A stretch of 64,000 bases of DNA from a bacterium (GCA_021780375.1 JAJXYT010000001.1:304-64303); one strand, 5' to 3'; shown: positions 3,821 through 61,477, counted from the stretch's first letter. A program made the numbers and translations. Notes: generated by a model from the sequence alone, not told the origin.

Positions 3821-3967
3821 CAAATCAAAATCAAAATTGAAACCAAAGAAGGCGAAAGCGTATCGCACGAAGCCGCGCCCGCTGGGTCTTCGCAAAGGTT
3901 TCAGGTATGACAATGTTTCCCAATTGCTCACGCGCATTGAAGGCGGACGTTATCGTTGAGTTTCTCA

Positions 3968-3997
3968 ATCCGTGTTTATCCGTGTCCATCAGTGGTT
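3968..3997 (+). repeat. 30-nt ATCCGTG decamer block (copy upstream of kdsA)
   Basis: atccgtgtttatccgtgtccatcagtggtt is 27/30 identical to 21764-21793 and similar to 9669-9698. Confidence 0.75.
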
Positions 3998-4863: not shown

Positions 4864-4957
4864 CCTCGAACATCCAACCTCGAACATCCAACATCCAATT
4901 GAGTTGCCAGTTCGGAACCATTGGATGTCCGGCGTTGGATATTGGATGTTGGATGTT
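4864..4957. repeat. Imperfect hairpin built from aacatcc / ggatgtt words
   Basis: The left arm has three acatccaa words and the right arm has four ttggat(g/a)t words. It fills the kdsA-kdsC spacer. Confidence 0.6.
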
Positions 4958-4974
4958 TTCAAACTTTGATTTTC

Positions 4975-5514
4975 ATGGAGCGCCTTTCTCCGCAACTTCA
5001 ATCGCGCCTCAAGCGCGTAAAATTGTTCCTGTGCGACGTGGACGGGGTGCTGACCGACGGCGCGGTTTACCTCGGCGGCACGCGGGAAATCAAACGGTTT
5101 AACATCCGCGACGGTCTCGGCCTGATTTTTTTGCGCCGGGCCGGTTTCCCGGTCGGCTGGGTTTCCGCCCGGCCATCGCCGGTGACGAAGGCGCGCGCGG
5201 CCGAGCTGGGAATTGATTTTCTCGTCCAGCAAGGCGACCGCCGGAGCAAAACCGGCGCGGTGGAAAAACTGTTGCGCCGGACCAAACTGGATTGGGACGC
5301 CGTTTGTTTCGTCGGCGACGACGTGGTGGATTTGGGGCCGTTGACGCGGGCCGGCCTGGCGGTGGCGGTGGCCGACGCGCGGCCGGAGGCAAAGGCGGCG
5401 GCGCATTATGTCACGCGCGCGGCGGGCGGCCACGGCGCGGTGCGCGAAACGGCGGAAATGATTTTACAGGCGCAGGAAAAATGGGACGCCATTATCGCCC
5501 ACTACTGCGAATGA
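4975..5514 (+). CDS. kdsC: KDO 8-phosphate phosphatase (HAD superfamily)
   Basis: HAD motif I CDVDGVLTD, motif VGDDVVD, and KdsC-like length. ATG 4975 is preferred; the track start at 4921 lies in the hairpin repeat. Confidence 0.85.
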   Translation: MERLSPQLQSRLKRVKLFLCDVDGVLTDGAVYLGGTREIKRFNIRDGLGLIFLRRAGFPVGWVSARPSPVTKARAAELGIDFLVQQGDRRSKTGAVEKLLRRTKLDWDAVCFVGDDVVDLGPLTRAGLAVAVADARPEAKAAAHYVTRAAGGHGAVRETAEMILQAQEKWDAIIAHYCE

Positions 5515-5521
5515 CAGAACG

Positions 5522-5596
5522 GTAGCAGCGGACATTAGTCCGCTCTAAAACATGCAAAGAATTTTGAATAATGAGCCGGCTGACGCCGGCTGCTAC
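5522..5596. repeat. Double-hairpin palindromic element, full copy 1 (GTAGCAGC...GCTGCTAC family)
   Basis: Unit gtagcagcggacattagtccgctc, 27-nt spacer, inverted unit gagccggctgacgccggctgctac. Each unit is itself a 6-bp stem with a 4-nt loop. Confidence 0.8.
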
Positions 5597-6061
5597 GAGG
5601 AAGGACCAGCCCGGCCCGTTATTATTGCCATTTGGATTTTATTGGCCCAGATGGCGCTGGGACCTTTGGCCGTTGCCCGAGCACAGTCGAATGTCGTGGG
5701 CCACGCCAGCGATTTCACGTCGGTGGAGTACTACCCGGCGCCGAACCAGCAGCAGATGAAATCGCGGTTGTCCGGCGCGGAAGCGCAGCCGCTGCCGGGC
5801 GGATTGCTCGCCATCAAACAGCTCAAGCTCGAAACATTCGGACCGGACGGCAAGTCGGAAATCATCGTCAACGCGCCGGAGTGCGTTTATGATCAGTTGA
5901 GCGGCACGGCCAGCTCCGCCGGCCGGTTGCAGGTGCAGTACCAGGAAGGAAAAATCCGCATTGAAGGCAAAGGTTTTTTGTGGCGGCAAAGCGATTCCTT
6001 CCTCACCATCTCCAATCGCATATCCACCGTGCTGCAATTCGGATCGGAAAGGATGAATTAA
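5552..6061 (+). CDS. lptC: LptC-like periplasmic LPS-export protein (start uncertain)
   Basis: Has an N-terminal hydrophobic segment and a beta-rich ~150-aa body. It is assigned mainly from its position between kdsC and lptA. The first ~15 codons lie inside repeat 5522-5596. Confidence 0.5.
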   Translation: MQRILNNEPADAGCYEEGPARPVIIAIWILLAQMALGPLAVARAQSNVVGHASDFTSVEYYPAPNQQQMKSRLSGAEAQPLPGGLLAIKQLKLETFGPDGKSEIIVNAPECVYDQLSGTASSAGRLQVQYQEGKIRIEGKGFLWRQSDSFLTISNRISTVLQFGSERMN

Positions 6062-6064
6062 GCC

Positions 6065-6766
6065 GTGAAAATTTTTGGTTACATTGCACTGATGGCCCTC
6101 GCCGGCGTCGGACCGTTGCGCGCGCAGCGGAACACCAACACGAATGCCGTTGACGAAATCCTGGCGCTGGTGACAACGAATGCGCCCGCGTCGAAACCGC
6201 GACCGCGTCCGGAGACATTGATTGAAGCCGACGGCCCCGCGGATTTCGACCTGGCCGGGCACAAGGTGGTTTACCATGAGCACGTGCGGGTGGATTCCCC
6301 GAACATGAAGTTGAGTTGTGAATGGCTCGCCGCCGACCTGCCGCAAACCGGCGGTCGCGTGACCAACATCGTCGCCGAAACCAACGTGGTGATTGACGCG
6401 ACCGATGACAAAGGCCAGCAGATGCACGCAACCGGCGACAAGGCGGTGTACGTTTACAGCGTCGAAAACGGCGTGACCAACGAGACCGTCACATTGACGG
6501 GCAATGCGCGGCTGGAAAACACCCAGGGCTGGCTGACGGGTGATTCGATTATCTGGGACCGGATGCATGAACGTTTGAGCGTGCCGTCCAATCCCAAAAT
6601 GATCTTTCATCAAACCCTCAATGGCGTGGCCATCGGCACCAATGCGCCGCCGGTGGAAACCAATCCGCCGCCGGTGGCGACCCGTCCCCCGGCAACGGAC
6701 ACGAATTTGCCGCCGGCGAAACCGGATCCGACGCACAAACCCGCTCCGCCGCCTGAAAATTTCTAA
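6065..6766 (+). CDS. lptA: LptA/OstA-like periplasmic LPS transport protein with Pro-rich tail
   Basis: GTG start, signal peptide (ALMALAGVGPLRA), OstA-like beta-jellyroll sequence (ATGDKAVYVY...LTGNARLENTQGWLTGDSIIWD), and a position upstream of lptB. Confidence 0.65.
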   Translation: MKIFGYIALMALAGVGPLRAQRNTNTNAVDEILALVTTNAPASKPRPRPETLIEADGPADFDLAGHKVVYHEHVRVDSPNMKLSCEWLAADLPQTGGRVTNIVAETNVVIDATDDKGQQMHATGDKAVYVYSVENGVTNETVTLTGNARLENTQGWLTGDSIIWDRMHERLSVPSNPKMIFHQTLNGVAIGTNAPPVETNPPPVATRPPATDTNLPPAKPDPTHKPAPPPENF

Positions 6767-6772
6767 GACTGA

Positions 6773-7522
6773 ATGGAAACGACCGCGACATCGTCGAACG
6801 GCCTGCTGCTCGCCACCGAAAAGCTGATGAAGGCCTATCATGGCCGGCGGGTGGTTGACGGCGTTTCGGTGAACGTGAAGGCGGGTGAGATCGTCGGATT
6901 GCTCGGTCCGAACGGCGCGGGCAAGACCACGACCTTCAACATGGTCGTGGGCGTCGTGAAACCCGATGAAGGCGTGGTGAACTTTCAGGCCCGCAACATC
7001 ACGCGGCTGCCCATGCACAAACGCGCCCGGCTGGGCATCGGCTATCTGACGCAGGAACCGTCGGTGTTCCGCAAGCTGACGGTCGAGCAAAACATCCTGG
7101 CGATTCTGGAAACGTGCAAAATGTCGCGGGACGAGCGCGCGGTGCGGTTGAAGTACCTGCTGCAGGAACTGGATTTGACACCGGTGGCCCGGAGCCGGGC
7201 GTACCAGATCAGCGGCGGGGAGAAGCGGCGGCTGGAAATCACCCGCGCCCTGGTGACCAGCCCCCGGCTGATGCTGCTGGACGAGCCGTTCAGCGGCATT
7301 GACCCCATCGCGGTTTACGAAGTCCAGAAGATCGTGCGCCGCCTCAAGGAGCGCGGTCTGGGCATTTTGATCACCGACCATAACGTGCGGGAAACCTTGA
7401 AATTGATTGACCGCGGTTACATCATTCACAAGGGTCAAGTGCTGGTGGAGGGCAGTTCGGAATTTCTGACGAACGACCCGAAGGCGCGCGAGATTTACCT
7501 GGGACCGGAATTTAACCTGTAG
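6773..7522 (+). CDS. lptB: LPS export ABC transporter ATP-binding protein
   Basis: Walker A GPNGAGKTT, signature ISGGEKRRLE, Walker B LMLLDEP, and H-loop ITDHN. LptB-typical length of 249 aa. Confidence 0.9.
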   Translation: METTATSSNGLLLATEKLMKAYHGRRVVDGVSVNVKAGEIVGLLGPNGAGKTTTFNMVVGVVKPDEGVVNFQARNITRLPMHKRARLGIGYLTQEPSVFRKLTVEQNILAILETCKMSRDERAVRLKYLLQELDLTPVARSRAYQISGGEKRRLEITRALVTSPRLMLLDEPFSGIDPIAVYEVQKIVRRLKERGLGILITDHNVRETLKLIDRGYIIHKGQVLVEGSSEFLTNDPKAREIYLGPEFNL

Positions 7523-7523
7523 T

Positions 7524-7623
7524 CGGATTAAGACGAAGCTTAAGATTACGAGCAAGAGTATGATAACGAGAAAAGCCCGCTGCCACCTCTCGATTCTTAA
7601 ACTTAATCTTAATCGTAATCGCG
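7524..7623. repeat. gattaag-type word-repeat hairpin, copy 2
   Basis: cggattaagacgaagcttaagattacgag pairs with ctcgattcttaaacttaatcttaatcgtaatcgcg across a ~36-nt loop. It lies between lptB and hprK. Confidence 0.6.
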
Positions 7624-7635
7624 GTTGAAAAAAAT

Positions 7636-8601
7636 ATGGCACACGAACCCGTCACGGTTGAACGGTTTTATGAGGAGCATGCCGACTCGCTGCAACTGCG
7701 ATCGCTGTCCGGCAAAAACGGATTCAAACGCATCATCCGTGAGCCGACGGTCAACCGCCCCGGCCTGGCCCTGAGCGGTTTCACGCGTTATTTCGCCTAC
7801 AAACGCATCCAGGTGCTGGGCAACGCGGAAACGTATTATTTGCGGTCACTCTCCCGCGCGGAGCGCGAGACCCGCTACGCGGAACTGTTCGCCTACCGGA
7901 TTCCCGGAATCGTGTTCAGCCGCAATCTCCGGCCGGACGACGAACTGCTGGTGGCGGCGGACAAGGCGGGCGTGCCGATTTTTCACACCGCGCTCGTCAC
8001 GATGCGGTTCATCAACTTCGCCACCTTCGCCCTGGAGATGATGTTCGCGCCGCGCGGCACGGAAATGGGCAGCGCGGTGGACATCCTGGGCGTGGGTGTG
8101 CTCATTCGCGGTGAAAGCGGCATCGGCAAAAGCGAGGCGGTCCTGGCCCTCATCGAGCGCGGTTACAGTCTGGTGGCCGATGATGTGACGAAGGTGACGC
8201 TGTTGGACGGCCGCCAGGTGATGTGCACCAGCGCCGAATTGACGCGTGACCACATGGAAATCCGGGGCATCGGCATCATCAACGTGGCCGCCATGTTCGG
8301 CGTCAAAAGCGTTCGCAAGGAAAAGAACCTCGATCTGGTCATCACCCTCAAAGCCTGGAAAGAAGTGGACGAGGTGGACCGGATCGGCATGGAACAGGAA
8401 TTTGTCAAAGTGCTGGGGGTGGACATTCCGCACATCGTGATTCCCGTGCGGCCGGGCCGGGACCTGGCGCGGCTCATCGAAGTCGCCGCCTTCCAGACCA
8501 AACTGAAAATGTCGGGCTACAACGCCGCCGAAGACCTGAACCAGCGGTTGATTGCCCACATGGTGCCGGGCCATGTGATGCCGCCGACGGCACAAAAATA
8601 G
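7636..8601 (+). CDS. hprK: HPr kinase/phosphorylase
   Basis: P-loop GESGIGKSE, LVADD and the EIRGIGII signature. 321 aa. Confidence 0.9.
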   Translation: MAHEPVTVERFYEEHADSLQLRSLSGKNGFKRIIREPTVNRPGLALSGFTRYFAYKRIQVLGNAETYYLRSLSRAERETRYAELFAYRIPGIVFSRNLRPDDELLVAADKAGVPIFHTALVTMRFINFATFALEMMFAPRGTEMGSAVDILGVGVLIRGESGIGKSEAVLALIERGYSLVADDVTKVTLLDGRQVMCTSAELTRDHMEIRGIGIINVAAMFGVKSVRKEKNLDLVITLKAWKEVDEVDRIGMEQEFVKVLGVDIPHIVIPVRPGRDLARLIEVAAFQTKLKMSGYNAAEDLNQRLIAHMVPGHVMPPTAQK

Positions 8602-21598: not shown

Positions 21599-21763
21599 CG
21601 CGGCGCGATGACCCTGCCACGCCGGGTTTCTTTGCCATAAATTGAGATCAGGAAATGCGCGTCCGCTCGTCAATGAGTCCGCAAACTTCATACCGTGGTT
21701 CAAAGGGAGGATAGGCGGAGCAAAGTCGCTGGAGTGGCTCTGGGAGCGGACAAACGGCCAAAA

Positions 21764-21793
21764 ATCCGTGTTCATCCGTGTCCATCCGTGGTA
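21764..21793 (+). repeat. 30-nt ATCCGTG decamer block (copy upstream of gatB)
   Basis: atccgtgttcatccgtgtccatccgtggta ends 16 nt before the gatB ATG. Confidence 0.75.
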
Positions 21794-21809: not shown

Positions 21810-23306
21810 ATGGACTACGAAGCGGTCATCGGCCTGGAAACCCACGTCCAGCTCAAGACGAAATCGAAGATGTGGTGCGGCTGCGCCAACGCGTTCGGCT
21901 CGCCGCCGAACACGAATGTTTGCCCGGTCTGCCTCGGCCTGCCCGGCGTATTGCCCGTCGCCAACGAGGAAGCGTTGAAGCTCACTGCGCTCACCGGTTT
22001 GTTGTTGAACTGCCGGATTCCACCTCGCGCGAAGTTCGACCGGAAGAATTATTTCTACCCGGACATGCCCAAGAACTACCAGATTACGCAATACGACCAG
22101 CCGTCCACCGCGAACGGCTACGTGGATTTCGAGTTTAACGGCGGCATTGCCCGCGTGCGCATCACCCGCGCCCATCTGGAGGAAGACGTCGGCAAGAGTT
22201 TCCATTTCGAGCGCAACAGTGGTGTGGATTTCAACCGCGCCGGGGTGCCATTGATGGAAATTGTCTCCGAACCGGACCTTACCAGCGCGGACATGGCCTA
22301 CGAATATCTCAACGCCCTCAAGGACATTCTGGTTTATGGCGGCGTGAGCGATTGCGACATGGAAAAGGGCATGGTGCGTTGCGACGTGAACGTGAGCGTG
22401 CGGCCGGTCGGCACCAGGGAACTGGGCGCCAAGATCGAAATCAAGAACATGAACAGCTTCTCCGGCGTGCGCCGCGCCCTGGAATACGAAATCCCGCGCC
22501 AGATTGAAGTGCTGAGCAAGGGCGGCAAACTGATCCAATCCACTCGCCGCTGGGACGACGCGGCGGGCGTGACCGAGGAAATGCGCACCAAAGAACACGC
22601 GCATGATTACCGCTATTTCCCCGACCCGGACCTGATGCCATTTGCGCCAACGGAACCGTGGCTGGCGGACGTGAAATCGCGCGCGGTCGAATTGCCATTG
22701 GCGCGCAAACAGCGGTTCATGAAGGATTATGGTTTGCCGGCATCGGACGCCGAAACGTTCAAGAACGACGTGCCGCTGGGCAATTATTTTGAAGGCATTG
22801 CCAAACAGTCGAAAAATCCGAAAGCGGTCGCGAACTGGGTGATCAACAATTTGCGGGCGAAACTTTCTGAGAGTAGGAGCCGAGGTAACGAGGCTCTCAC
22901 TGAAAACGGCAAGAATGGTCAGAGCCTCCTCACGTCGGCTCCTGCGGAATTAACGCTGGCCGACTTGAAATTCAAACCGGAAGCGATCCTGGAGCTGGCC
23001 AACCTGGTCGAAGCCAGAACCATCAGCAGTTCCGCGGCGCAGCAGGTGTTTGCCGAAATGTTCGACACCGGCAAATCGCCCACGGCCATCGTCCAGGAAA
23101 AAGGCCTGGCGCAGGTCAGCGACACGGGGGCGATTGAGAAATTCTGCGACGAAGCCATTGCGGCTAATCCGGGCCCCGTTGCCGATTTCAAATCCGGCAA
23201 GGTGGCCGCGTTGAATTTCCTGAAAGGCCAGGTGATGAAATTGAGCAAGGGCAAGGCAAACCCGGCGCTGGCGGGTGAGATTCTGGAAAGAAAACTGAAA
23301 GGGTGA
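21810..23306 (+). CDS. gatB: Asp/Glu-tRNA amidotransferase subunit B
   Basis: GatB-like over its full length (GLETHVQL, CPVCLGLPG, NFDRKNYFYPD-like block, C-terminal YqeY-like domain). It carries a ~24-aa insertion (see repeat 22873-22945). Confidence 0.93.
   Translation: MDYEAVIGLETHVQLKTKSKMWCGCANAFGSPPNTNVCPVCLGLPGVLPVANEEALKLTALTGLLLNCRIPPRAKFDRKNYFYPDMPKNYQITQYDQPSTANGYVDFEFNGGIARVRITRAHLEEDVGKSFHFERNSGVDFNRAGVPLMEIVSEPDLTSADMAYEYLNALKDILVYGGVSDCDMEKGMVRCDVNVSVRPVGTRELGAKIEIKNMNSFSGVRRALEYEIPRQIEVLSKGGKLIQSTRRWDDAAGVTEEMRTKEHAHDYRYFPDPDLMPFAPTEPWLADVKSRAVELPLARKQRFMKDYGLPASDAETFKNDVPLGNYFEGIAKQSKNPKAVANWVINNLRAKLSESRSRGNEALTENGKNGQSLLTSAPAELTLADLKFKPEAILELANLVEARTISSSAAQQVFAEMFDTGKSPTAIVQEKGLAQVSDTGAIEKFCDEAIAANPGPVADFKSGKVAALNFLKGQVMKLSKGKANPALAGEILERKLKG
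22873..22945. repeat. Double-hairpin palindromic element, copy 2, inside the gatB reading frame
   Basis: gtaggagccgaggtaacgaggctc, 25-nt spacer, gagcctcctcacgtcggctcctgc. The long-range arms are complementary (aggagccga/tcggctcct, gaggctct/agagcctc). It has the same unit-spacer-unit geometry as 5522-5596 and 25345-25418. Confidence 0.7.
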
Positions 23307-25344: not shown

Positions 25345-25418
25345 GTAGCAGCCGATGTGAATCGGCTCATTCTCGAGTCTCCGCCGAAAGGTTAGAGCGG
25401 ACTCACGTCCGCTGCTAC
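25345..25418. repeat. Double-hairpin palindromic element, full copy 3
   Basis: gtagcagccgatgtgaatcggctc, 26-nt spacer, gagcggactcacgtccgctgctac. It exactly fills the moeA-moaC spacer. Confidence 0.85.
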
Positions 25419-25420
25419 AA

Positions 25421-27064
25421 TTATTCGGTGGTGGTCGGCAAAAAATCCACGATTGCGCCTGATTCAATTGAGCCGCGGTTCGCCGGCACCCGGATCAACG
25501 CATTCGTTTCCGTCAGACACGTCACGTCGCCGGAACTTACCCACGCTAGCGGATGCAAACCCGCCGCATCCCGGCGTGCCGGCCACAGAGTTTCGCGCGG
25601 ATTCGGCCCGTCTTCAAGCTTCGCTGCCAGTGTGCCGCGCCGAAATTCCGGCGGTGCGCCACCAGTCAGTTTTGCCAGGGCCGCCGCCACAAACAGATGG
25701 AAACAGACGAAATGCGACAGCGGATTGCCCGGCAAGCCGAAGGCAATGCGCCCGCCCTTTTGGCCGAAAATCAGCGGCCGGCCGGGACGAACGTTGACCT
25801 GTGAAAAAATGATTTCAAAGCCGAGGGATTCGAGCAACGGGCGGGTAAAATCCTTTTCCCCCACGCTCGCCCCGCCGGAAACCAGCAATACATCCGCGTC
25901 GCCAACCGTCGATTGCCGATGGCTGATTTTCGATTTTGCCAGCTCGAACTTTTCCGGCCAATGCGCTTGTTCCAGATGGCAGGGATATTTTTGGAGCAAA
26001 TTGCGGATCAAAATCGAATTGCTGTCACGGATCTGTCCCGGTTTTGGCGTTTGTTCCGGCAAAATAATTTCGTCACCGGTGGTAAAATGGCAGACCCGCA
26101 ATCGCGGGCTGACGAGCGGTTGCGTGCCGCCCACGGTCGCCAGCAACGCCAGAGTTCCGGCGCCGAGTTTTACACCCGGCTGCAAAACGGCTTCACCCGT
26201 GCGCAGCTCTTCACCGCGCCGGCGCACATTCGATGCGGATTCACGGCGGAGAATTCTGATCCGGTCGCCCGTGCGTTCGACATTTTCCTGCATGAGCACC
26301 CGTAAATGTTCACACGGCAACGTCGCGCCGGTCGCAACCCGGACAGTTTCGCCAATTTTCAATTCGCGCGGTTTCCAATCGGCGGCGTGCAGCGTGTCCA
26401 CGACCCGGAAAATCTCCGACTCGTCGTTCGGCAAAATGGCATAGCCGTCGCGCGTGGAGCGGTCGCCATCGGGAAAATCTTCGGACGCACAAATGGTTTC
26501 GCGCAGCACGCGGCCGAAACATGCTTCCAACGGTGTACGAACGGCAGGCAATGGCTGGCAGTGCGTGTGGATTTCGGCAAGGGCGTCGTCCAGTGACCGA
26601 ACGCTTTGTAGCCGCCGATGCGAATCGGCGGACTGATGGGAACCGGAAATCCGCAAATTCACATTTGCGGCTACGGACGATAAGGCCTGGCGTTTCCAGA
26701 TCGGCACGTCCTGCTTCAGCCGGTCCATGAACTCCGCCAGCAGAGCAATGGCTTCGCCACGGTGGCTGGCGGCGATCCCAACATAAATCGCCGTTTCACC
26801 CACCGGAATGATTCCGATGCGATGGACAACCCTGGCCGCGAGGCAGGGATGCCGCGACGAAATTTCTTCCAGCAACCGCCGAATTTCGCGCGCGGCCATT
26901 TCGGGATAAGCCTCGTATTCAAGCGCCGAAATGCTCTGCGCATTTTCCTCGCCGCGAACGACCCCGCGAAACTCCAGCCACGCACCGTGCCCGCCGATCG
27001 GCGGCGGGGACATTTTCTCCGCAACCGGCTCGTGTAGGAGTTGAATCTCGATTTCCATGCTCAA
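25421..27064 (-). CDS. Fusion protein: MoaE (molybdopterin synthase catalytic subunit) plus MoeA (molybdopterin molybdenumtransferase)
   Basis: The N-terminal ~130 aa are MoaE-like (ALEYEAYPEMA..., VGETAIYVGIAASHRGEA..., VPIWKRQ). The remaining ~400 aa are MoeA-like (STRDGYAI..., LVSGGASVGEKDF). Confidence 0.82.
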   Translation of the reverse strand: MSMEIEIQLLHEPVAEKMSPPPIGGHGAWLEFRGVVRGEENAQSISALEYEAYPEMAAREIRRLLEEISSRHPCLAARVVHRIGIIPVGETAIYVGIAASHRGEAIALLAEFMDRLKQDVPIWKRQALSSVAANVNLRISGSHQSADSHRRLQSVRSLDDALAEIHTHCQPLPAVRTPLEACFGRVLRETICASEDFPDGDRSTRDGYAILPNDESEIFRVVDTLHAADWKPRELKIGETVRVATGATLPCEHLRVLMQENVERTGDRIRILRRESASNVRRRGEELRTGEAVLQPGVKLGAGTLALLATVGGTQPLVSPRLRVCHFTTGDEIILPEQTPKPGQIRDSNSILIRNLLQKYPCHLEQAHWPEKFELAKSKISHRQSTVGDADVLLVSGGASVGEKDFTRPLLESLGFEIIFSQVNVRPGRPLIFGQKGGRIAFGLPGNPLSHFVCFHLFVAAALAKLTGGAPPEFRRGTLAAKLEDGPNPRETLWPARRDAAGLHPLAWVSSGDVTCLTETNALIRVPANRGSIESGAIVDFLPTTTE

Positions 27065-35181: not shown

Positions 35182-36090
35182 TTAATTGTAATTGTTCATC
35201 CATGTCGGCCAGTTCGGCGTCCAGGGGACAAAAATCTTGCTCCAAGGCAACGTCCAAAGCTCTTTCAACCCCACGTTCCTGACGGAACCATCTACGAAGG
35301 TCATATTGACAGGGCTTCGGCCGGGATGTCTGGCAGTGGCAAATGACTGCAATTCGGTGAATTTCCCGCAAAAACCTTGAGACTGAGGCGGCAAATTATA
35401 AATCAGGTTGCCGGTGCCAGGGGAGTGCGGATTGGATCCCTGCCAGACGCAGTCGCTGAATAATGGCACTCGTGTCGCGTACCTGCCCGCGGCGGTCATG
35501 GTCCGCCAATACCCCGGCGCATCGGGATCACCAACAATGGTTGCGGTCGGAGGGTTGGCCATCCAGCCGTTAAACCCATAACTGCCGCCCATTCCTGGAC
35601 GACCCCACGTCTCCGTCTGTCCCGTTCCGGGCGCCGTGCTCGAACCGACGGGATAAGCATTTGTACCCATTATCCCCCAGGCTAAAAAAGTGGTGTTGTT
35701 GACAGTCCACATGTTTGCACCCAATGAACTGCGGCATGTGGTGGCGGCAGGGCAAAAGCACATTTTACCGCCCATGCCGGTGCCCGTGCTGGATCCGGGA
35801 ATGTACGGCTGCAAAGCGAACATCCACATCCCATCAGGATCATACCAGCCCAACGGCAAACTGTCGTGGTGGTCCCCCGCATAAAGCTGAAAGGACAACC
35901 CCCACTGCCTGAGGTTCGATACGCACAGAATACGCTGCGCTCGGAGTTTTGCGGCGGACAGGGCCGGCAGCAACAAGGCCGCTAAAATGGCAATGATGGC
36001 AATCACCACCAGCAATTCAATCAACGTAAAGCCTGATCGCCATGGTCGCCTCTTTTTCAATTTTGATATTTTAAAATCGGGCGTCTGCAT
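35182..36090 (-). CDS. DUF1559-type protein with prepilin N-terminal cleavage/methylation signal
   Basis: [25 protein letters not shown] class-III signal and a C-terminal ...[11 protein letters not shown] block typical of the PVC-expanded DUF1559 family. Confidence 0.8.
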
Positions 36091-51315: not shown

Positions 51316-53535
51316 GTGAGCCTGAGCGCCTACGCCGACACAGTTTTGACAGAACAATTTCAAGACTACGCCACCGGGAACCTCGGCGCGACCGGAACGG
51401 GGGCTACGGGCGGCGTTCCCGGTTGGAATACCCCGAAATCTCACATCACTGTCACCAACGGCAGCGGCAGTCTGGATGGAACCGGACTGGGTCTGGTCGC
51501 GTCCGCCGGCGACATGGTTTACATCATACCCACCGCCAATACCAATGACAATTTCGATACCAACTCGGCGGGCATTCCCAACGGCTGCTACAACCTGTTT
51601 GCCTACAAAACTTCGCCGTATCCGACTTTCCCCGGGACCACCAATGTCAATCTTTATTGTTCGTTCCTTTTTCAGTTCAACGACAACACGAATTTTCCCG
51701 CCAACGGGGTTTCAATGATTGCAGGGATGTATCTGGAAAACGGCGGCATTCAAAGCTCCAGTGGGGCTGATGCGTATTGGCAATTGTTGGCGAGGTCGGC
51801 TGGCGGTAATAACGTTCAGCTTGGAATCGCCAAAAACATCTTCGGCCCTGTTCCTGGCATTACCAACTGGGATTCCACCACCATTACGGTGGGACAACCC
51901 ATTTTTGTCGTCACCCGGCTGCAAATTGCAGCGACCAACGGTTTGAACAATTACACGAATGACGAATCGGATCTCTGGATCAACCCGCCGGCCAATACGT
52001 TCGGGACCAACGAGGCCAATGTGCCGGCCCCCGACGCGAGCTCACCTCCGGGTGACGGCGCTCCTCCCTCAAGTTCCACCGGACCGGGGCGCTTTTTCAT
52101 AACGGACAACGGTCTGGGCGCCAATTTGGATGAATTGCGCATTGCCACGAATTGGGCGGAGGTCACGCCTCCCTTTGGCCAATGTCTCTCGGCGGCCTTT
52201 ACTACGAATCCGACAAACTTAACGCAGGTTGCGGAGATCAGCGCGACTTTTTATTCAAAAGCGGCCAACAGCACCAGCCCCGAGTACCAGTGGCAGATCA
52301 GCCAGAACGGCGGCGCCACGTGGTCCGACATCAGCGGCGCGATTCGCAACATTTACACCACCCCCAACTTGCAGTTGGCGACTGACAATGGAAATCAATA
52401 TCGGGCCATCGTCAGTGTCCCCTGCGACGGGTCCTCGGCCACTTCCTCGGTTGCAACCGTGACGCTGACTGCGCCGACGGTTACGCCGTCGCCCAGCACG
52501 ATCATGAATGATGTTTTCCCGGGCAATACTTTCCGCGATGTGGGTCCCGTCACGACCACTCATTCAACCTGGTTCACTGGCAATGCGGCGCCTTCAAGCT
52601 CGTCAGATTTGTTGACGGATCCTAGCGGGACGGGCCTGATCGCCCTGCCGATTAGTGGGAGTTCGAGTTTGTATTTGGGTTATTTTGTCAATGAAACCCC
52701 CAGCAGCAAGTTGCCGGTTCATTTGGCCATCGGAACCCAAATCACCGCCACCCTCAAGTTCATTCCCAGCTCATTCAACGCCTTTACCAACAATGGGGCG
52801 CTGCGATTCGGCCTGTTTGATTACGCTGATAGCGGTACGTTGATTACCAGTGATCAGGCAAACCTCACTGGGAGCCTGGGTTATGGATTGAACGTCCGGG
52901 GGTATATGCTCAGTTTGGACTTTGGCACCAACTTCATCGATAACACGCCCTTGTCGCTCTATGTCAGGAACGGCCTGGGTGATAATAATCTGATGGGCAC
53001 AACGGGCGATTACTTATCCATGGGAGGCGGGCCGGCGGGAGGCGCATATTCAAATACGCCCGCGTTCCAAGCCGGCACTACTTATACTTTGGCATTGACC
53101 GTGGCACGAACAGGCACCAATGCCTCTACGGTCACAGCGGCGATTACCGGCGGCAGCCTGAATCTGTCGTTTACCGCCACCGACACCAACAGTTTCGGCT
53201 ACCATAGATTCGATACGCTTGCCGTCCGGCCCAACAAGCTTGAGAACGCAGCCGACCAGTTCACGTTCCCGCTGTTCACCGTCCAAGTGACCAATGCGCC
53301 GGTGCAGGTGTCGAGTGTGGCGCTTGCGAGTGTTTCCCGTACCGGAAATAACGTGACTCTCACATGGCAGGCGGCCCCGGGTGGCGCTGATGTCAGCAGC
53401 GGTTTTAGTGTGTATCGCAAGAACAGCCTGACCGATGCTACTTGGACCTTGCTGCAATCCGCGATCACTACAACAAATTATACGGACACGACAGCGACCA
53501 ACAGTGCGGGCTTCTACCGCATAAGTTATCCGTGA
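51316..53535 (+). CDS. Secreted LamG-like/Ig-like/FN3-like protein with FYR tail; signal peptide is split off by a frameshift
   Basis: The main ORF starts at GTG 51316 with no signal peptide. ATG 51272 encodes MKQIHSILAIILGVT and then a stop in another frame. The N-terminal module resembles that of PEP-CTERM protein 61498-62343. The protein ends GFYRISYP. Confidence 0.7.
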   Translation: MSLSAYADTVLTEQFQDYATGNLGATGTGATGGVPGWNTPKSHITVTNGSGSLDGTGLGLVASAGDMVYIIPTANTNDNFDTNSAGIPNGCYNLFAYKTSPYPTFPGTTNVNLYCSFLFQFNDNTNFPANGVSMIAGMYLENGGIQSSSGADAYWQLLARSAGGNNVQLGIAKNIFGPVPGITNWDSTTITVGQPIFVVTRLQIAATNGLNNYTNDESDLWINPPANTFGTNEANVPAPDASSPPGDGAPPSSSTGPGRFFITDNGLGANLDELRIATNWAEVTPPFGQCLSAAFTTNPTNLTQVAEISATFYSKAANSTSPEYQWQISQNGGATWSDISGAIRNIYTTPNLQLATDNGNQYRAIVSVPCDGSSATSSVATVTLTAPTVTPSPSTIMNDVFPGNTFRDVGPVTTTHSTWFTGNAAPSSSSDLLTDPSGTGLIALPISGSSSLYLGYFVNETPSSKLPVHLAIGTQITATLKFIPSSFNAFTNNGALRFGLFDYADSGTLITSDQANLTGSLGYGLNVRGYMLSLDFGTNFIDNTPLSLYVRNGLGDNNLMGTTGDYLSMGGGPAGGAYSNTPAFQAGTTYTLALTVARTGTNASTVTAAITGGSLNLSFTATDTNSFGYHRFDTLAVRPNKLENAADQFTFPLFTVQVTNAPVQVSSVALASVSRTGNNVTLTWQAAPGGADVSSGFSVYRKNSLTDATWTLLQSAITTTNYTDTTATNSAGFYRISYP

Positions 53536-53594: not shown

Positions 53595-53738
53595 ATGCCT
53601 GGCTGAAGTTTGCACGTTCCGCGGGCATGAGCAAAACGACCCGGAGTGACAAATCTCAGAGCGTGTCCGAAAAACAGCAGCAGCCAGCGTGAACTGGCCC
53701 TGACATCATGACCGCAGCGGCGTTTCACGAGGGAATTT

Positions 53739-53762
53739 GAGCCGACTCACGTCGGCTGCTAC
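53739..53762. repeat. Solo unit of the double-hairpin element (gagccgactcacgtcggctgctac)
   Basis: Perfect 6-bp stem gccgac/gtcggc with loop tcac and the GCTGCTAC end word. No partner unit was seen. Confidence 0.7.
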
Positions 53763-54006: not shown

Positions 54007-54616
54007 CCAAACTGCGGCCACGGGAACGTGTCAGACACCGCGTTCGACGTGTGGCTGGATGTGCCACCCGGTCTGGAGCATCGTGCCACGAACCACGCCC
54101 AATGAATCTCCATCAGGAAATGCCGAAGGAATAATTGTCGGCAAATGGGAACACGGTTCATTTATCAGCCGGTTTCATTGCGAAATGCAGCGCGGGATCG
54201 GTTCCACCTGCGCCAATAATCTCGTTGTAGCAGCCCGGCAACCTGGAAAATGTCGCTTCGCAGGCGGCAGCATTGAAGAAGTGGAGTCTTCCCGCCACGC
54301 GTTGGCGTCGTGATGAGGCCTTCGAACCGGTGGAAAAGGAATGTCTGGCCTCGTTTTTTAGCCGCCTTTGAGGTTGGCTGCAAAATCAGCGAAGTCCTGG
54401 AAGCCCCGTTCGGGTGTGGTCATGGCGTAAAACAGGAGTCGCGCCTGTTTCTGACTTTGAATGATCGCCTTGAGGCGTGGTTTTTCCCGGCTGGCTCGCC
54501 ATGACCAAAAGTTGAGGGAAAATTTTCAGCTCGAGAGAGGCGCGAGGCCTGTCCTCCCCGAGTTGGCACACGTATTGCGGGGATTGCCTGCTGAATGGAT
54601 ACGGCTCAGGCCAGAA

Positions 54617-55582
54617 TCACGGAGGCAAAATTGCCCTGACATACCGGAAGATGTCGGCACCTCCCGATTCGCCAATGGAGGCGGTCGAACTGCTCACATT
54701 CCAATACGTGACAATGCCATTGGGTCCCGTGCTCGACGCATTGAAGAGATTAAACGCATTGGGATTATCCTGTTGCCCCTCCCAGCGGACGTGGCCGTCA
54801 GGGAAAAGCGCATTCATCCCGATATCCCCCTTCGCAAAGGCAAAGTTATCATTTCCCTGGGTTTGATCGGTGGCAATGCACTTTTTCTGATCCAATTCCG
54901 AAACCGTTACGGCCGGTTTTGGGCGATAGAAACCTTTGCCAGCGTATTCCGTGTTTCTTGACTGGGGAAAATAATCATAACCAATCCGGATGTAACCTGG
55001 GTTTTGGCCTGCGTTTGGTTGGGTGCAGTATGACGGCCACGCATAGGGGGGGTTGACATAACAACCGTAGGTCATGTTAAAGCCGATGACTCCCGCCCCG
55101 ACCGGGGTATAAAATACTTTGGGATTGGCAATATCCCTGTCTCCCCATAGAAGCCCAAGGTTCCACCAGCCGGAGGTGGTTTCCCCTGGAACAGTTCCAT
55201 CATCTGTGGAGAAGGTGCTACCCGACTTCATACGCGCTATTTCATGGGTCCGCCACGGGCTGGCCACACTGCTGCCGACGTTTACAGTTCGGTTCATGGC
55301 AACAACTCCCGGCCAGTGAGCCGGCAACAATTGGTTGCGGTGATCGCCCGGATACATTGTCCAGCCTTCGCCAAGTTGTTTCTCGTTGCTGGTGTCGGCT
55401 ACGCGCAACGCCTTTTGCTTGGCCGCCGACAGCGCCGGCAACAGCATCGCGGCCAGGATGGCAATGATGGCAATGACCACCAGCAATTCAATCAAGGTAA
55501 AACCTTGGTGCGGTGGACGTTGCGGCCGACCGGCAGCCGGTCTTACGCCCTTCTGGGCGTCACGATTTAAATTAATAGGCAT
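54617..55582 (-). CDS. DUF1559-type protein with prepilin N-terminal signal, second copy
   Basis: [29 protein letters not shown] class-III signal and a C-terminal ...[11 protein letters not shown] block. Confidence 0.8.
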
Positions 55583-57098: not shown

Positions 57099-57220
57099 GG
57101 GACTTCAGAATAGCGGAATCAGAAGACATGCAAACCCGGAACCTTTGCAAAAAGGCATGAGGAAAGTGCATCCCTGACGAAAACCACTTTGTTATCAATA
57201 GCAACCCCCAATGAGAACCA

Positions 57221-57747
57221 CTACGGTTTCTCATGATAAGGGGAACGGCTTTCAAAGAGCTTGAGCTGGTTTTGAATGACATCAGCCAGTGCCTTGTTGT
57301 TTTGCGCGACGCTCAGCTCCATTGCCTGCCGGGCCGTTCCGACTGCTTCCGGAAATCGTCCAGCCCCGGCATAAGCGGCCGCGAGCGTATCCAGGATCTG
57401 GGGCGATGAGCCTGCGGAAAGTTGCACGGCCCGTTGTGCCGCTTCCACAGCCTTTGGCCCATTGCGCAGCGACGCGTCCGGACAGGTCGCCAGTATCCAG
57501 GCCAGATTGAGGCGCGCGCCGGAATGACCAGGATCAAGTCCGAGAGTTCTTTGATATTCGGCGATGGCGGCGGAGAATTTCTTTTCTTTTTCCAAGGCCC
57601 GGGCGTAACGGAAGTGGGCCTGGGCGGATGGTAAACAATGACTGTGGCCACCAGCAAAACCAATCCGGGCAACCAGCCCTGGTTCCATAACTTCCAGGCG
57701 AATTCAATGGCTGGTTGTGGAGGTTTGTTTGCCACGGTGACCGGCAA
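57221..57747 (-). pseudogene. 5'-truncated, frameshifted paralog of the TMTC-like/TPR gene (TPR tail only)
   Basis: The C-terminal ~95 aa are ~70 percent identical to the end of 59182-61404. An N-terminal TM-like segment (WLPGLVLLVATVIVYH) is in a different frame, with the switch near 57620. Confidence 0.55.
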
Positions 57748-57753
57748 AAACTA

Positions 57754-57784
57754 AACAGGCGCTGGAAAATTACCAGCGCCTGTT
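57754..57784 (-). terminator. Hairpin aacaggcgctgg-N7-ccagcgcctgtt after the PEP-CTERM gene stop
   Basis: Perfect 12-bp stem followed on the minus strand by a T-rich tract. A near-identical hairpin lies at 61449-61477. Confidence 0.65.
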
Positions 57785-58809: not shown

Positions 58810-59181
58810 TTGATTTGTGGCTTCCGGATTTTTGTATGTACTCCTTCATTTTGCATATTCCCGGACGTTTGTCAGCTTAAATCTCCTCCAATAGGCTGCA
58901 AAAGACATTGAAAATTCAGCACTCGCTTCGGCGTTATCCGCATAATTTCATGACTTTGAGCAGCATTCGCAAATACCAAGGTCAGTCGGCCGGAAAACAG
59001 GAAAAATGCGCCTGAACGCCCGCTGGGAACACTTCCTGGAACTCGGTTTCCTTATTCAGCATCCGAACCGCGCCTGGCTGGCGTGAATGGAATGGATGGT
59101 CCGCTTGATAGAGCTTCAGTTGTGATCGAAGGGCGAGATGCTGGATTTTCGGACACGATAATTGCCAATGGTCTGTAACCA

Positions 59182-61404
59182 CTAAGGTTTCTCATGGTAG
59201 GCGAAATGCCTTTCAAAGAGTTTCAGTTGAGTCTGTATGTCGTCGGTCAACGCCTTGTTGTTTTGAGCAGTGCTCAAATCCAAAGCCCGGCGCGCGGTTG
59301 CGACCGCTTCGGGAAAACGTCCGGTTTCAGCATAAGCGGCCGCCAGCGTGTCCAGAATCTGCGGGGCTACGCCTGCGGAAAGTTTCACGGCACGTTGCGC
59401 CAGTTCCACCGCCTTTGGACCATCACGCAAGGATGCGTCCGAACAGGTCGCCAGGATCCAGGCCAGATCGTTTTGAGCTGTGACATGAAGCGGGTTCAGT
59501 TCGAGAACCTTCTGAAATTGAGCGATGGCTGCCGCGGATTTGCCCAGGCATCGAAAGGCCAGACCCAATTGATAATGAGCGTGGATTGAATCAGGCGCCT
59601 GTTTCAGCGCTTGCTGGTAATTTTCAGCGGCACCCTGCCACTGGCCTTGGGCGAAAAGCAAATCGGCAAGATTGTCATGCGCCTTGGCGTAGTCCGGATC
59701 AATTTCAAGGGCTTTCTGAAATTGCTCAATGGCCTGTGCCGACTGTCCCTGTCTGGCTAACAGGTCGCCGAGATTATTGTAAAACTCTGCGCGACCCGGC
59801 TCGATTTCGGTCGCCTGCTGATATTGTTCGATCGCCTGATCGACCCGGCCTTGTCTGGCCAGAAGGATTCCCATGTTGTTGTGCGCTTCGGCAAAGGTCG
59901 GGTCAACCGCCAGCGCATGGCGAAAACATTCCAGCGCCTTGTTCAGTTTTCCCTGACGGAGAAGAGCCGTTCCAAGATTGTTATTGCAATCCACACAGTC
60001 GGGATTGATCTGGAGAGCTTTCTGATAATGCCTGACGGCTTCCTCGGTCCGCCCGCGGGCGGCCAGATCATAACCCAAATTGTTTTGGGCGATGTAATTT
60101 CCGCGGGTGCAGGCGATAGCGTGTTTCCAAAGCGATTCATCATTCTTCCAAAAAGAGATTTGCCTCCAAGTGCAGACCGCCAAAGCAACGATTATGATGG
60201 ACGCCGCCGTTGCCAGGATCTGACCGCGATAACGCCAGGTAGTGGTCAAACCTGCGACAACCCACACTATGGCAATATATAATCCGATTTGCGGCAAATA
60301 AGTATAGCGATCGGCATGGGCGTAGAAGGATATCTGCACGATTCCAATGACCGGGATCAGCATCCCCAAATACCAAAGCCAGCCAACCACCAGCCATGGG
60401 TGTTGTTTGTGAAAAGTCCAGACCACCACAGATATGGCCAGTAACAGCGCCACTGCTCCAGCCACCTGCCAGAGGGGCAAATTAGAGGTGGGGTTGGGAT
60501 AAAGACACGCCAGGCCCGACGGATAAAACATCTGCCCGAGGCAGGTAACATACGAGACCACGGCGTTTTCCAGCCGCAATTCCAAAGGCAGACGCAGAAA
60601 ACCAGAAATTTTTTCCGGGGCCAAAAACGTCATCACGCACGATCCAATTGTCAGTGCAAACAGCGGAACCTTCTCGACCAACAGCCTCGCAAAATCCCGG
60701 ATTCCGGATTCCGGATTCCGAATTCGATTCAATGGCCAGTAATCCAGCAACAAGAGCACGAAGGGCAGTGTCACCAGCATGTTCTTGGACAGGAGTCCCA
60801 ACGCGAAGCATAGCGCCACCACGCTGTAGCGAATCATTGAGGGCTGACGGACATAGCGGAGATAAGCACCGAGGGTCAGCATAAAGAAGAACGCGCTTAA
60901 CACGTCCTTGCGTTCCGCCACCCAGGCCACTGATTCCACCCGCAGCGGATGAACCGCAAATACCGCCGCCACAAACGCGCTGCGCCAGAGGGCGCCGGTC
61001 ATCTGTCGCAGCACCAGGAAAAGCAAGATCACCGTTGCCGTGTGCAACAAGACATTGGTGAAATGATGACCTTCGGCATTCAATCCGTAGAGTTGGCAAT
61101 CCAGCATGTGGGAGAGCCAGGTCAGCGGATGCCAGTGGCCAATGGCACTGTAAGTCAGTGCCCAGCGAAATCCTTCCCAGGTCAGACCTCTTTGGACAAT
61201 GAGATTCCTGGAGACATACACACCGTCATCGAAGACGAATCCGCATCCGAGCGTCCGCCCGAAGACGAGGAACACCATCAGTGCCAGCAGAACGCACACG
61301 CTGAAAACTGTCCGGCTGCTGACCGCTTTGCCGGAAAACGATGGTGGCTGCGGAACTGCCATAGGCTTTGACCATATTTGCCGGTCAGGGCCTGAAGGGG
61401 CCAC
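59182..61404 (-). CDS. TMTC-like GT-C membrane glycosyltransferase domain fused to TPR repeats
   Basis: The N-terminal ~400 aa are polytopic, with an FVFDD motif in the first loop as in PMT/TMTC-type GT-C enzymes. The C-terminal ~330 aa are TPR repeats. Confidence 0.75.
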   Translation of the reverse strand: MAPSGPDRQIWSKPMAVPQPPSFSGKAVSSRTVFSVCVLLALMVFLVFGRTLGCGFVFDDGVYVSRNLIVQRGLTWEGFRWALTYSAIGHWHPLTWLSHMLDCQLYGLNAEGHHFTNVLLHTATVILLFLVLRQMTGALWRSAFVAAVFAVHPLRVESVAWVAERKDVLSAFFFMLTLGAYLRYVRQPSMIRYSVVALCFALGLLSKNMLVTLPFVLLLLDYWPLNRIRNPESGIRDFARLLVEKVPLFALTIGSCVMTFLAPEKISGFLRLPLELRLENAVVSYVTCLGQMFYPSGLACLYPNPTSNLPLWQVAGAVALLLAISVVVWTFHKQHPWLVVGWLWYLGMLIPVIGIVQISFYAHADRYTYLPQIGLYIAIVWVVAGLTTTWRYRGQILATAASIIIVALAVCTWRQISFWKNDESLWKHAIACTRGNYIAQNNLGYDLAARGRTEEAVRHYQKALQINPDCVDCNNNLGTALLRQGKLNKALECFRHALAVDPTFAEAHNNMGILLARQGRVDQAIEQYQQATEIEPGRAEFYNNLGDLLARQGQSAQAIEQFQKALEIDPDYAKAHDNLADLLFAQGQWQGAAENYQQALKQAPDSIHAHYQLGLAFRCLGKSAAAIAQFQKVLELNPLHVTAQNDLAWILATCSDASLRDGPKAVELAQRAVKLSAGVAPQILDTLAAAYAETGRFPEAVATARRALDLSTAQNNKALTDDIQTQLKLFERHFAYHEKP

Positions 61405-61448
61405 TTAAAATTTGCCGGCTCGGATACAGAATCGTCTCCAAATACAAA

Positions 61449-61477
61449 ACAGGCGCTGGAAAATTTCCAGCGCCTGT
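61449..61477 (-). terminator. Hairpin acaggcgctgg-N7-ccagcgcctgt after the PEP-CTERM gene stop
   Basis: 11-bp perfect stem. It is a paralog of 57754-57784. Confidence 0.65.

Follow-up and report, generated by a model that had tools for sequence, protein, structure and literature searches.

The gatB Gene and the Position of the Insert

The 64-kb stretch of DNA analyzed here, referred to as the window, contains a gene for a 498-aa protein whose reading frame, as stated in the initial annotation, remains open across a short palindromic element (Table 1). The product contains the domains GatB_N (PF02934, 2.5e-113) and GatB_Yqey (PF02637, 2.2e-43), matches the Aquifex GatB 3h0l (E = 2e-142), aligns over its full length with 2df4_B, and is collinear throughout with the solved GatB of Aquifex, Thermotoga and S. 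aureus. According to this domain organization, GatB_N followed by a GatB/YqeY region, and to its collinearity with solved structures, the protein is assigned to GatB. In all three alignments, exactly 24 residues of the window GatB remain unmatched, located after the conserved helix ...NWVINNLRAKL; the estimate of about 24 extra residues is thus exact, both with respect to the solved structures and to some 90 empty-site orthologs from the Limisphaerales. The translation of bases 22866-22955 reads SESRSRGNEALTENGKNGQSLLTSAPAELT.

According to the structure-based alignment, the site of the insert corresponds to residues ~349-356 of S. aureus GatB, a protein in which the helical domain extends over residues 295-407 and the loop linking the helical and tail domains over residues 408-411 (PMC2811023). 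The location first proposed, between the NW(V/L)INNL helix and the YqeY-like domain, was therefore inaccurate and the insert belongs within the helical domain. An AlphaFold2 model built from an input alignment of only 40 close relatives was used for the C-terminal region only, its mean pLDDT of 61 being poor overall and its catalytic domain poorly built. In this model, residues 300-350 and 380-498 reach pLDDT values of 80-90, whereas values below 50 are found at residues 359-379. The insert thus appears as a poorly ordered segment between well predicted flanks, in a model of low overall quality; this profile weakly suggests a disordered loop, in agreement with the tolerance to indels observed in nature.

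Table 1. Features assigned in the window, and repeat families occupying the GatB loop in the window and in related loci.
Feature	Position or loci	Strand	Remarks
gatB (Asp/Glu-tRNA amidotransferase subunit B)	21810..23306	+	498 aa; frame open across the element; ORF list, Pfam
REPIN, inverted doublet of GTAG-tagged REP units	22873..22945	+	73-nt element; net gain 72 nt = 24 codons
Left REP unit GTAGGAGCCGAGGTAACGAGGCTCT	22873..22897	+	stem GAGCC/GGCTC, 10-nt loop; read (S)RSRGNEAL
Doublet spacer, 23 nt	22898..22920	+	read TENGKNG; fastest-evolving part
Right REP unit AGAGCCTCCTCACGTCGGCTCCTGC	22921..22945	+	outer end CTGC, CTAC in orthologs; read QSLLTSAPA
Intergenic REPIN, family of the gatB element, 75 nt	5522..5596		between converging ORFs 4921-5514 (+) and 5639-7642 (-)
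Intergenic REPIN, family of the gatB element, 74 nt	25345..25418		adjoins 3' end of ORF 25421-27064 (-)
Single REP unit, family of the gatB element (reverse complement GTAGCAGCCGACGTGAGTCGGCTCA)	53738..53762	-	downstream of ORF 51316-53535 (+)
Type A, GTAGCAGC/GTAGGAGC; GTAGCAGCCGACGTGAGTCGGCTC...GAGCGGACTCACGTCCGCTGCTAC and variants	window, L002, L017, L020, L072, L081, L088, L090, L093, L107, L126, L133		the window's own family
Type B, GTAGCCGCC... (GTAGCCGCCGAGGTAACGAGGCGGA...)	L001, L036, L104		DNA read directly
Type C, GTAGGGCAGGCG... (GTAGGGCAGGCGTCTCGCCTGCCC...)	L082, L108		DNA read directly
Type C2, GTAGGACAGGCG...	L012, L016		DNA read directly
Type G, GTAGGGACGAC... (GTAGGGACGACCTGCTGGTCGTCC...)	L083, L089		DNA read directly
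Type G2, GTAGGGACGGAT... (GTAGGGACGGATTCC...)	L085, L086		DNA read directly
Type D, ends ...CCCACCCTAC	L096
Type E, hairpin CCCTCTCCCCAT..ATGGGGAGAGGG	L084
Type H, CCCCTCCCAGGAGGGG...	L117

Structural Organization of the Inserted Element

The element consists of two inverted 25-nt units separated by a 23-nt spacer and is read as the peptide SRSRGNEALTENGKNGQSLLTSAPA. The left arm AGGAGCCGAGGTAACGAGGCTCT (22875-22897) recurs, apart from 3 mismatches, as its reverse complement at 22921-22943, a match that never occurred in shuffled sequences. The long-range complementarity noticed at the outset is readily confirmed: 20 of 24 arm positions pair, the inverted repeat reaches a z-score of 6.7 against shuffles, and the fold of the corresponding RNA has an energy of -41 kcal/mol (z = -4.9). 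The local stems of the units, believed to be lost, are only shortened, since both arms retain a 5-bp GAGCC/GGCTC stem closing a 10-nt loop, which gives the single 25-nt arms folding energies of -10.7 and -7.1 kcal/mol. The tetranucleotide GTAG occurs at the left outer end, at position 22873, and the CTGC found at the right end differs by one change from CTAC. Nearly perfect copies occur in orthologous gatB genes, e.g., those of loci L017 and L072, in which the arms pair at 24/24 positions each. Owing to the GTAG ends, the stem-loop units, their inverted pairing and the copies occurring elsewhere, the element is identified, on the basis of its sequence, as a GTAG-tagged REP doublet, i.e., a REPIN.

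A MITE generating a target-site duplication was also considered and rejected: the comparison of filled and empty sites reveals a clean gain of 72 nt devoid of any duplication, and no related IS was seen.

With respect to the unusual shape of the units, the initial annotation had invoked a coding constraint. However, the same architecture occurs outside long ORFs in related loci (L020:150-220, L132:1507-1560 and L055:14668-14741), and contigs with flanks other than gatB carry the identical variant in the same metagenomes. The short-stem form with a 10-nt loop and nearly perfect complementarity of the arms is accordingly classified, from these comparisons of sequences, as a subtype of REP and not as a product of coding constraint.

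Other Copies of the Element

Five further units are distributed over three extragenic sites within the 64-kb window, and each of them begins with GTAG followed by a stem-loop. Both intergenic doublets are located at converging gene ends and fold with z-scores of -4.8 (5522-5596) and -5.7 (25345-25418). A MAFFT alignment comprising the gatB copy, 6 orthologous gatB copies and 3 intergenic copies shows that GTAG, the AGCC/GGCT stems and CTAC are invariant or nearly so, and that the orthologs supply forms intermediate between the gatB copy and the intergenic copies. The resemblance to 5522-5596, 25345-25418 and 53738-53762, on which the recognition of a repeat copy was initially based, thus persists in a proper alignment.

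In metagenomes containing the window, contigs with other flanks than gatB match exactly 22873-22906 and 22921 to ~22955 before continuing into unrelated sequence, at a depth close to that of the gatB contig. This variant thus resides at other loci as well, and the left boundary of the element coincides with the G of GTAG. The support for the reading frame was checked in Logan contigs from mine-drainage metagenomes: the interval 22600-23069 is contained in those from runs X1 and X3, and 22750-23050 in one from run X4, all with zero differences or gaps, while in run X2 two abutting contigs cover the element. Independent assemblies agree base for base, and the open frame is therefore not an accident of assembly. 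Other in-frame copies were searched for at the protein level, using a 51-aa concatenate of the arm peptides, which yielded 34 candidates and no match, and the 30-aa peptide of the window, for which a comparison with 1.84 billion representatives returned only 2 chance matches to unrelated repeat proteins.

Empty and Filled Sites in Related Bacteria

The gatB region was compared among 160 related loci, of which species genomes supplied 80 and metagenomes the other 80; all belong to the Verrucomicrobiota, and many bear the label Limisphaerales or subdivision 3. The site is empty in about 90 of the 160 loci, whose GatB measures 473-474 aa and has a segment of 13 aa (e.g., RAKLTESQTTLAE) instead of the 37 aa found in the window. 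Altogether, some 70 filled and 90 empty gatB alleles are documented by their DNA. When 72 nt are taken out of the window copy, a 13-aa segment, RAKLSETELTLAD, similar to that of the empty-site orthologs, is recovered and no target duplication is left behind; the repeat-free orthologs are thus without the extra residues.

Gains and losses were compared by nearest neighbours, because neighbour-joining trees of the loop-free GatB gave too little resolution among the members of the close clade. Empty sites occur in the vicinity of filled ones, e.g., L003 at a protein distance of 0.06 from P0101 and L010 at 0.08 from P0114. Nearly all GatB proteins lying no farther than 0.13 from the window possess an insert of 16-34 aa, L003 being the only empty one. 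Among the 61 relatives with a segment of the same length, identity to the window amounts to 90% in the GatB core, 54-66% in the arms of the insert and 21% in the spacer. A C>G change in the left arm (Ser to Arg) and a G>C change in the right arm (Ala to Pro), both present in the lineage of the window, co-occur in about 20 orthologs, and P0007 and L093 represent intermediates. This compensatory pair corresponds to a single inherited event, which could result from selection on the hairpin or from template switching in quasi-palindromes, and it was given little weight.

Diversity of the Repeats Occupying the GatB Loop

Depending on the lineage, the loop accommodates quite different repeats (Table 1), those of types D, E and H being likewise read directly from the DNA. 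Intact copies of types A, B, C, C2, G, G2, E and H are inverted repeats with z-scores of 5-21, whereas type D is weaker (z = 2.8, L096) and decayed or truncated copies such as that of L104 fall near zero. Types B, C2, E, G2 and H also occur outside gatB in the sampled loci, and the same classes of peptides are found in the 120 closest GatB proteins. The junction positions vary by 6-15 nt among the families. A family-blind scan for GTAG...CTAC pairs whose arms are complementary at 18 or more of 22 positions detected 27 inverted repeats in 1.99 Mb of related loci, where the chance expectation is estimated to be far below one; 17 of the 27 reside in the GatB loop, many of them shared by descent and all in loci chosen around gatB, so that they do not count as independent, 9 are intergenic or located at ORF edges and 1 lies in a doubtful ORF of 153 aa.

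The presence of at least nine distinct elements in a single loop implies a repeated colonization and makes the loop a hotspot of turnover. In this respect, the type A copies of L020, whose nearest relatives are empty, and of L107, whose nearest relatives carry a non-palindromic 19-aa insert, look like separate events. An import of type A by recombination was looked for in the flank identities of L107, L020 and L017 without any clear tract being found; one 60-nt stretch of L020 is slightly closer to the gatB of the window, within noise.

The 19-aa insert, ANE[RK]..AEQ..G.E..D..., is conserved at the same loop in about 25 loci from a large 'subdivision 3' clade, e.g., L008:10001-11479, L094:769-2247 and L120:6001-7494, and many alleles carrying a REPIN (B, C, D, G and some A) likewise start with ANE. 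Regarded as a possible decayed REPIN, it displays no residual inverted repeat (z ~0), and neither do a few other odd inserts of the loop. In L093 (2737-2827), the spacer of the gatB REPIN holds a tandem array of GAAATCC heptamers read as EKSEIRNPKSEI, and a similar run occurs in the gatB loop of L087 beside a half-decayed right arm. These arrays are a second layer of repeat growth within the insert.

Origin and Maintenance of the Insert

All these data make it very probable that the insert arose by transposition of a REPIN into the loop of the helical domain and that the element persists there as a passenger, the loop being a recurrent site of landing and turnover in the Limisphaerales. The REPIN, composed of two GTAG-tagged REPs in inverted orientation, would belong to the kind of elements mobilized by RAYT tyrosine transposases and would have entered the codons of the loop. 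Since the net gain amounts to 72 nt and the reading phase xGT-AGx is free of stops, the gatB frame stays open. Translation of the insert would then add 24 residues, for the most part hydrophilic, to a loop for which disorder is predicted. The enzyme would tolerate them and the element, nearly neutral, would be kept. Lineages of the Limisphaerales differ in that their loop carries different REP or REPIN families, the non-palindromic 19-aa insert or nothing.

With respect to the putative transposase, a motif scan of the 64-kb window detected no RAYT gene. RAYT-like ORFs occur in L018, L022 and L074, with REP_Tyr_transpos as the best NCBIfam match at 49-69 bits, below the 80-bit cut-off, and their flanks were found to be without the families seen in gatB. 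The ORF of L074 (7225-7812, 69 bits, below the cut-off) is bordered on both flanks by a different long palindromic repeat, ...GTCGCGAAGCGTCTTGGACTGCGGCAGCCCTCTGCCGC..., and may represent a transposase associated with its own repeat family.

The repeat had also been described as domesticated as a linker in a core translation enzyme. The contrast between a conserved core and rapidly diverging arms and spacer, together with the replacement of the element in relatives by at least nine unrelated families or by nothing at all, is better accounted for by a tolerated passenger than by a sequence-specific function; a benefit resulting from the length of the loop alone is still conceivable. Taken as a whole, the observation reported by the initial annotation is confirmed and its interpretation is retained in part: the in-frame copy of a dispersed repeat holds, whereas neither the coding constraint nor the domestication is supported. 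The nearly universal insert among the proteins closest to the window is not predicted by pure neutrality and could mean that a longer loop is now favored. Functional co-option, by which the longer tether would tune the handling of tRNA by the helical and tail domains or the hairpin of the mRNA would modulate the translation or stability of gatB, nevertheless seems improbable. Very low conservation, down to 21% identity in the spacer, unrelated peptides that replace one another and empty sites in relatives just 6-8% diverged are hardly reconciled with it, even if nearly all GatB within a distance of 0.13 possess 16-34 additional residues of any origin and if the hairpin is strong (-41 kcal/mol). 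The matched C>G and G>C changes of some 20 orthologs can be quoted in its favor, but they derive from a single inherited event with known intermediates (P0007, L093), which template switching would also explain.

The accumulation of repeats within 40 nt is not explained by tolerance alone, and the default explanation combines tolerance with selection against insertions elsewhere. A targeted hotspot, with a transposition machinery that prefers the DNA of the loop or a resident REP that attracts or exchanges REPINs, so that tolerance would not be the only cause, is possible and rather doubtful. The 17 of 27 REPIN-like elements (1.99 Mb) gathered within ~40 nt of gatB would be expected from such targeting, except that they stem from gatB-centred loci and are often inherited, which prevents their use as independent events. 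Similarly, the junctions of type A fall at the same nucleotide (GAR-N/GTAG...CTAC/, slashes marking the junctions) in L020 and L107, whose nearest relatives lack type A, and no recombination tract accounts for L107, but the tetranucleotides at the junctions vary by family (GAAA, GAGA, GAAC, GATG, CAAA, CTTG) and the positions of the families are 6-15 nt apart. The GTAG end is common to seven families, and in the relatives of IS200/IS605 a conserved end of this sort can guide the choice of the target; the repeats devoid of GTAG (E and H) and the non-palindromic inserts of the same loop point, on the contrary, to tolerance. It may tentatively be proposed, as the less likely option, that the GatB loop acts as a preferred site of entry or exchange for GTAG REPINs, precise excision regenerating the empty sites. 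If true, an essential gene would serve as a natural recorder of the gain, loss and replacement of REPINs across a bacterial order. Finally, an ordinary lineage-specific expansion of the loop or an artefact of assembly, palindromic by chance, is scarcely credible. The non-palindromic 19-aa and other odd inserts show that the loop is also enlarged in other lineages, but they do not account for an inverted repeat with a z-score of 6.7 where no match is expected by chance, for the GTAG end, or for the alignment with intergenic copies and the same variant at other loci. Contigs from four independently assembled runs, moreover, cover the element without differences. Both the chance palindrome and the artefact are refuted by this z-score, the intergenic homology and the agreement of the four runs.

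Relationship with Known Palindromic Repeats

The REPIN carried by gatB recalls the Rickettsia palindromic elements (RPE), which Ogata and coworkers reportedly described in 2000 (cited in PMC3733652) as lying in frame in functional genes; in-frame palindromic repeats are likewise known among GTAG and CGTC REPs in general. RPEs are longer or CGTC-tagged, specific to Rickettsia and devoid of a dedicated transposase. They reside in genes for functional, often essential, proteins and are tolerated as extra surface peptides. Similarly, the gatB element is a palindromic repeat lying in frame in a conserved gene, where it would be tolerated as a surface peptide; it differs in being GTAG-tagged and in its occurrence in MAGs from the Limisphaerales and Verrucomicrobiota, and would act like an RPE without being a member of this group.

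With the REPIN/RAYT systems of Pseudomonas and E. coli, whose REPINs are described as extragenic (PMC8049555) and whose RAYTs are cited in PMC3733652, the element shares the two inverted REPs, the long hairpin, the GTAG end and the copies located near gene ends. In contrast, the gatB copy lies in a coding frame and is accompanied by no RAYT in the 64-kb window. GTAG REPs are palindromic units, mostly arranged as head-to-head dimers and normally extragenic at the 3' ends of genes (PMC3733652). Some of them, however, lie wholly within ORFs of known proteins, where they encode 20-30 aa (Di Nocera, De Gregorio and Rocco 2013, PMC3733652); these intragenic REPs, mostly dimers, are most numerous in the verrucomicrobium Opitutus terrae, and the authors suggested that they occupy flexible linkers or loops (PMC3733652). 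In-frame REP dimers are thus already known, including in Verrucomicrobia, and the gatB element resembles them by its GTAG ends, its inverted dimeric organization and the 20-30 aa encoded in frame. However, neither gatB nor the amidotransferases figure in the list of REP-decorated ORFs, and different REPs at about the same site are documented by one case only, the recB gene of two Xanthomonas species (PMC3733652). That at least nine families, interspersed with empty sites, share one loop throughout an order marks the difference, and a multi-family turnover at a single GatB loop goes beyond what has been described.

In-frame palindromic repeats illustrate how core proteins can receive extra peptide segments from selfish DNA and survive the addition. 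The dense series of alleles offered by an essential translation enzyme can be used to measure the rates of gain, loss and replacement of REPINs, to address the target preference of the RAYT type and to map the extra peptide tolerated by the helical domain. From a practical point of view, the inserts of the loop inflate the apparent diversity of GatB and can mislead the alignment and annotation of metagenome-assembled genomes of Verrucomicrobiota.

Other Repeats in the Window

Several repeats of other kinds occur in the window. A degenerate inverted pair of type C-like units (...AACAGGAGTCGCGCCTGTT... and ...GAGAGGCGCGAGGCCTGTCCTCC...), located at 54427-54557 outside any long ORF, hints at a second REP family in the genome of the window. 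A triple 10-nt repeat, ATCCGTG-nnn x3 (reverse complement CACGGATGAACACGGATGAACACGGAT), occupies positions 21763-21792, 18 nt upstream of the gatB start codon, and recurs at 3967-3996 and as an inverted pair at 9621-9651/9668-9698, giving 8 matches against 0.07 expected; it could be a regulatory or promoter-proximal element. An 87-nt direct repeat of 83% identity (35948-36034 and 55419-55505), the opposite strand of which appears to encode the N-terminal hydrophobic helix of prepilin-type proteins, suggests paralogous pseudopilin-like genes. Near-identical 30-nt hairpins, ACAGGCGCTGGAAAATT(A/T)CCAGCGCCTGT, are found 3.7 kb apart at 57745-57784 and 61439-61477, in the vicinity of a 300-nt repeat of 77% identity (57216-57515 and 59177-59476), and probably correspond, together with the latter, to duplicated genes with their terminators.
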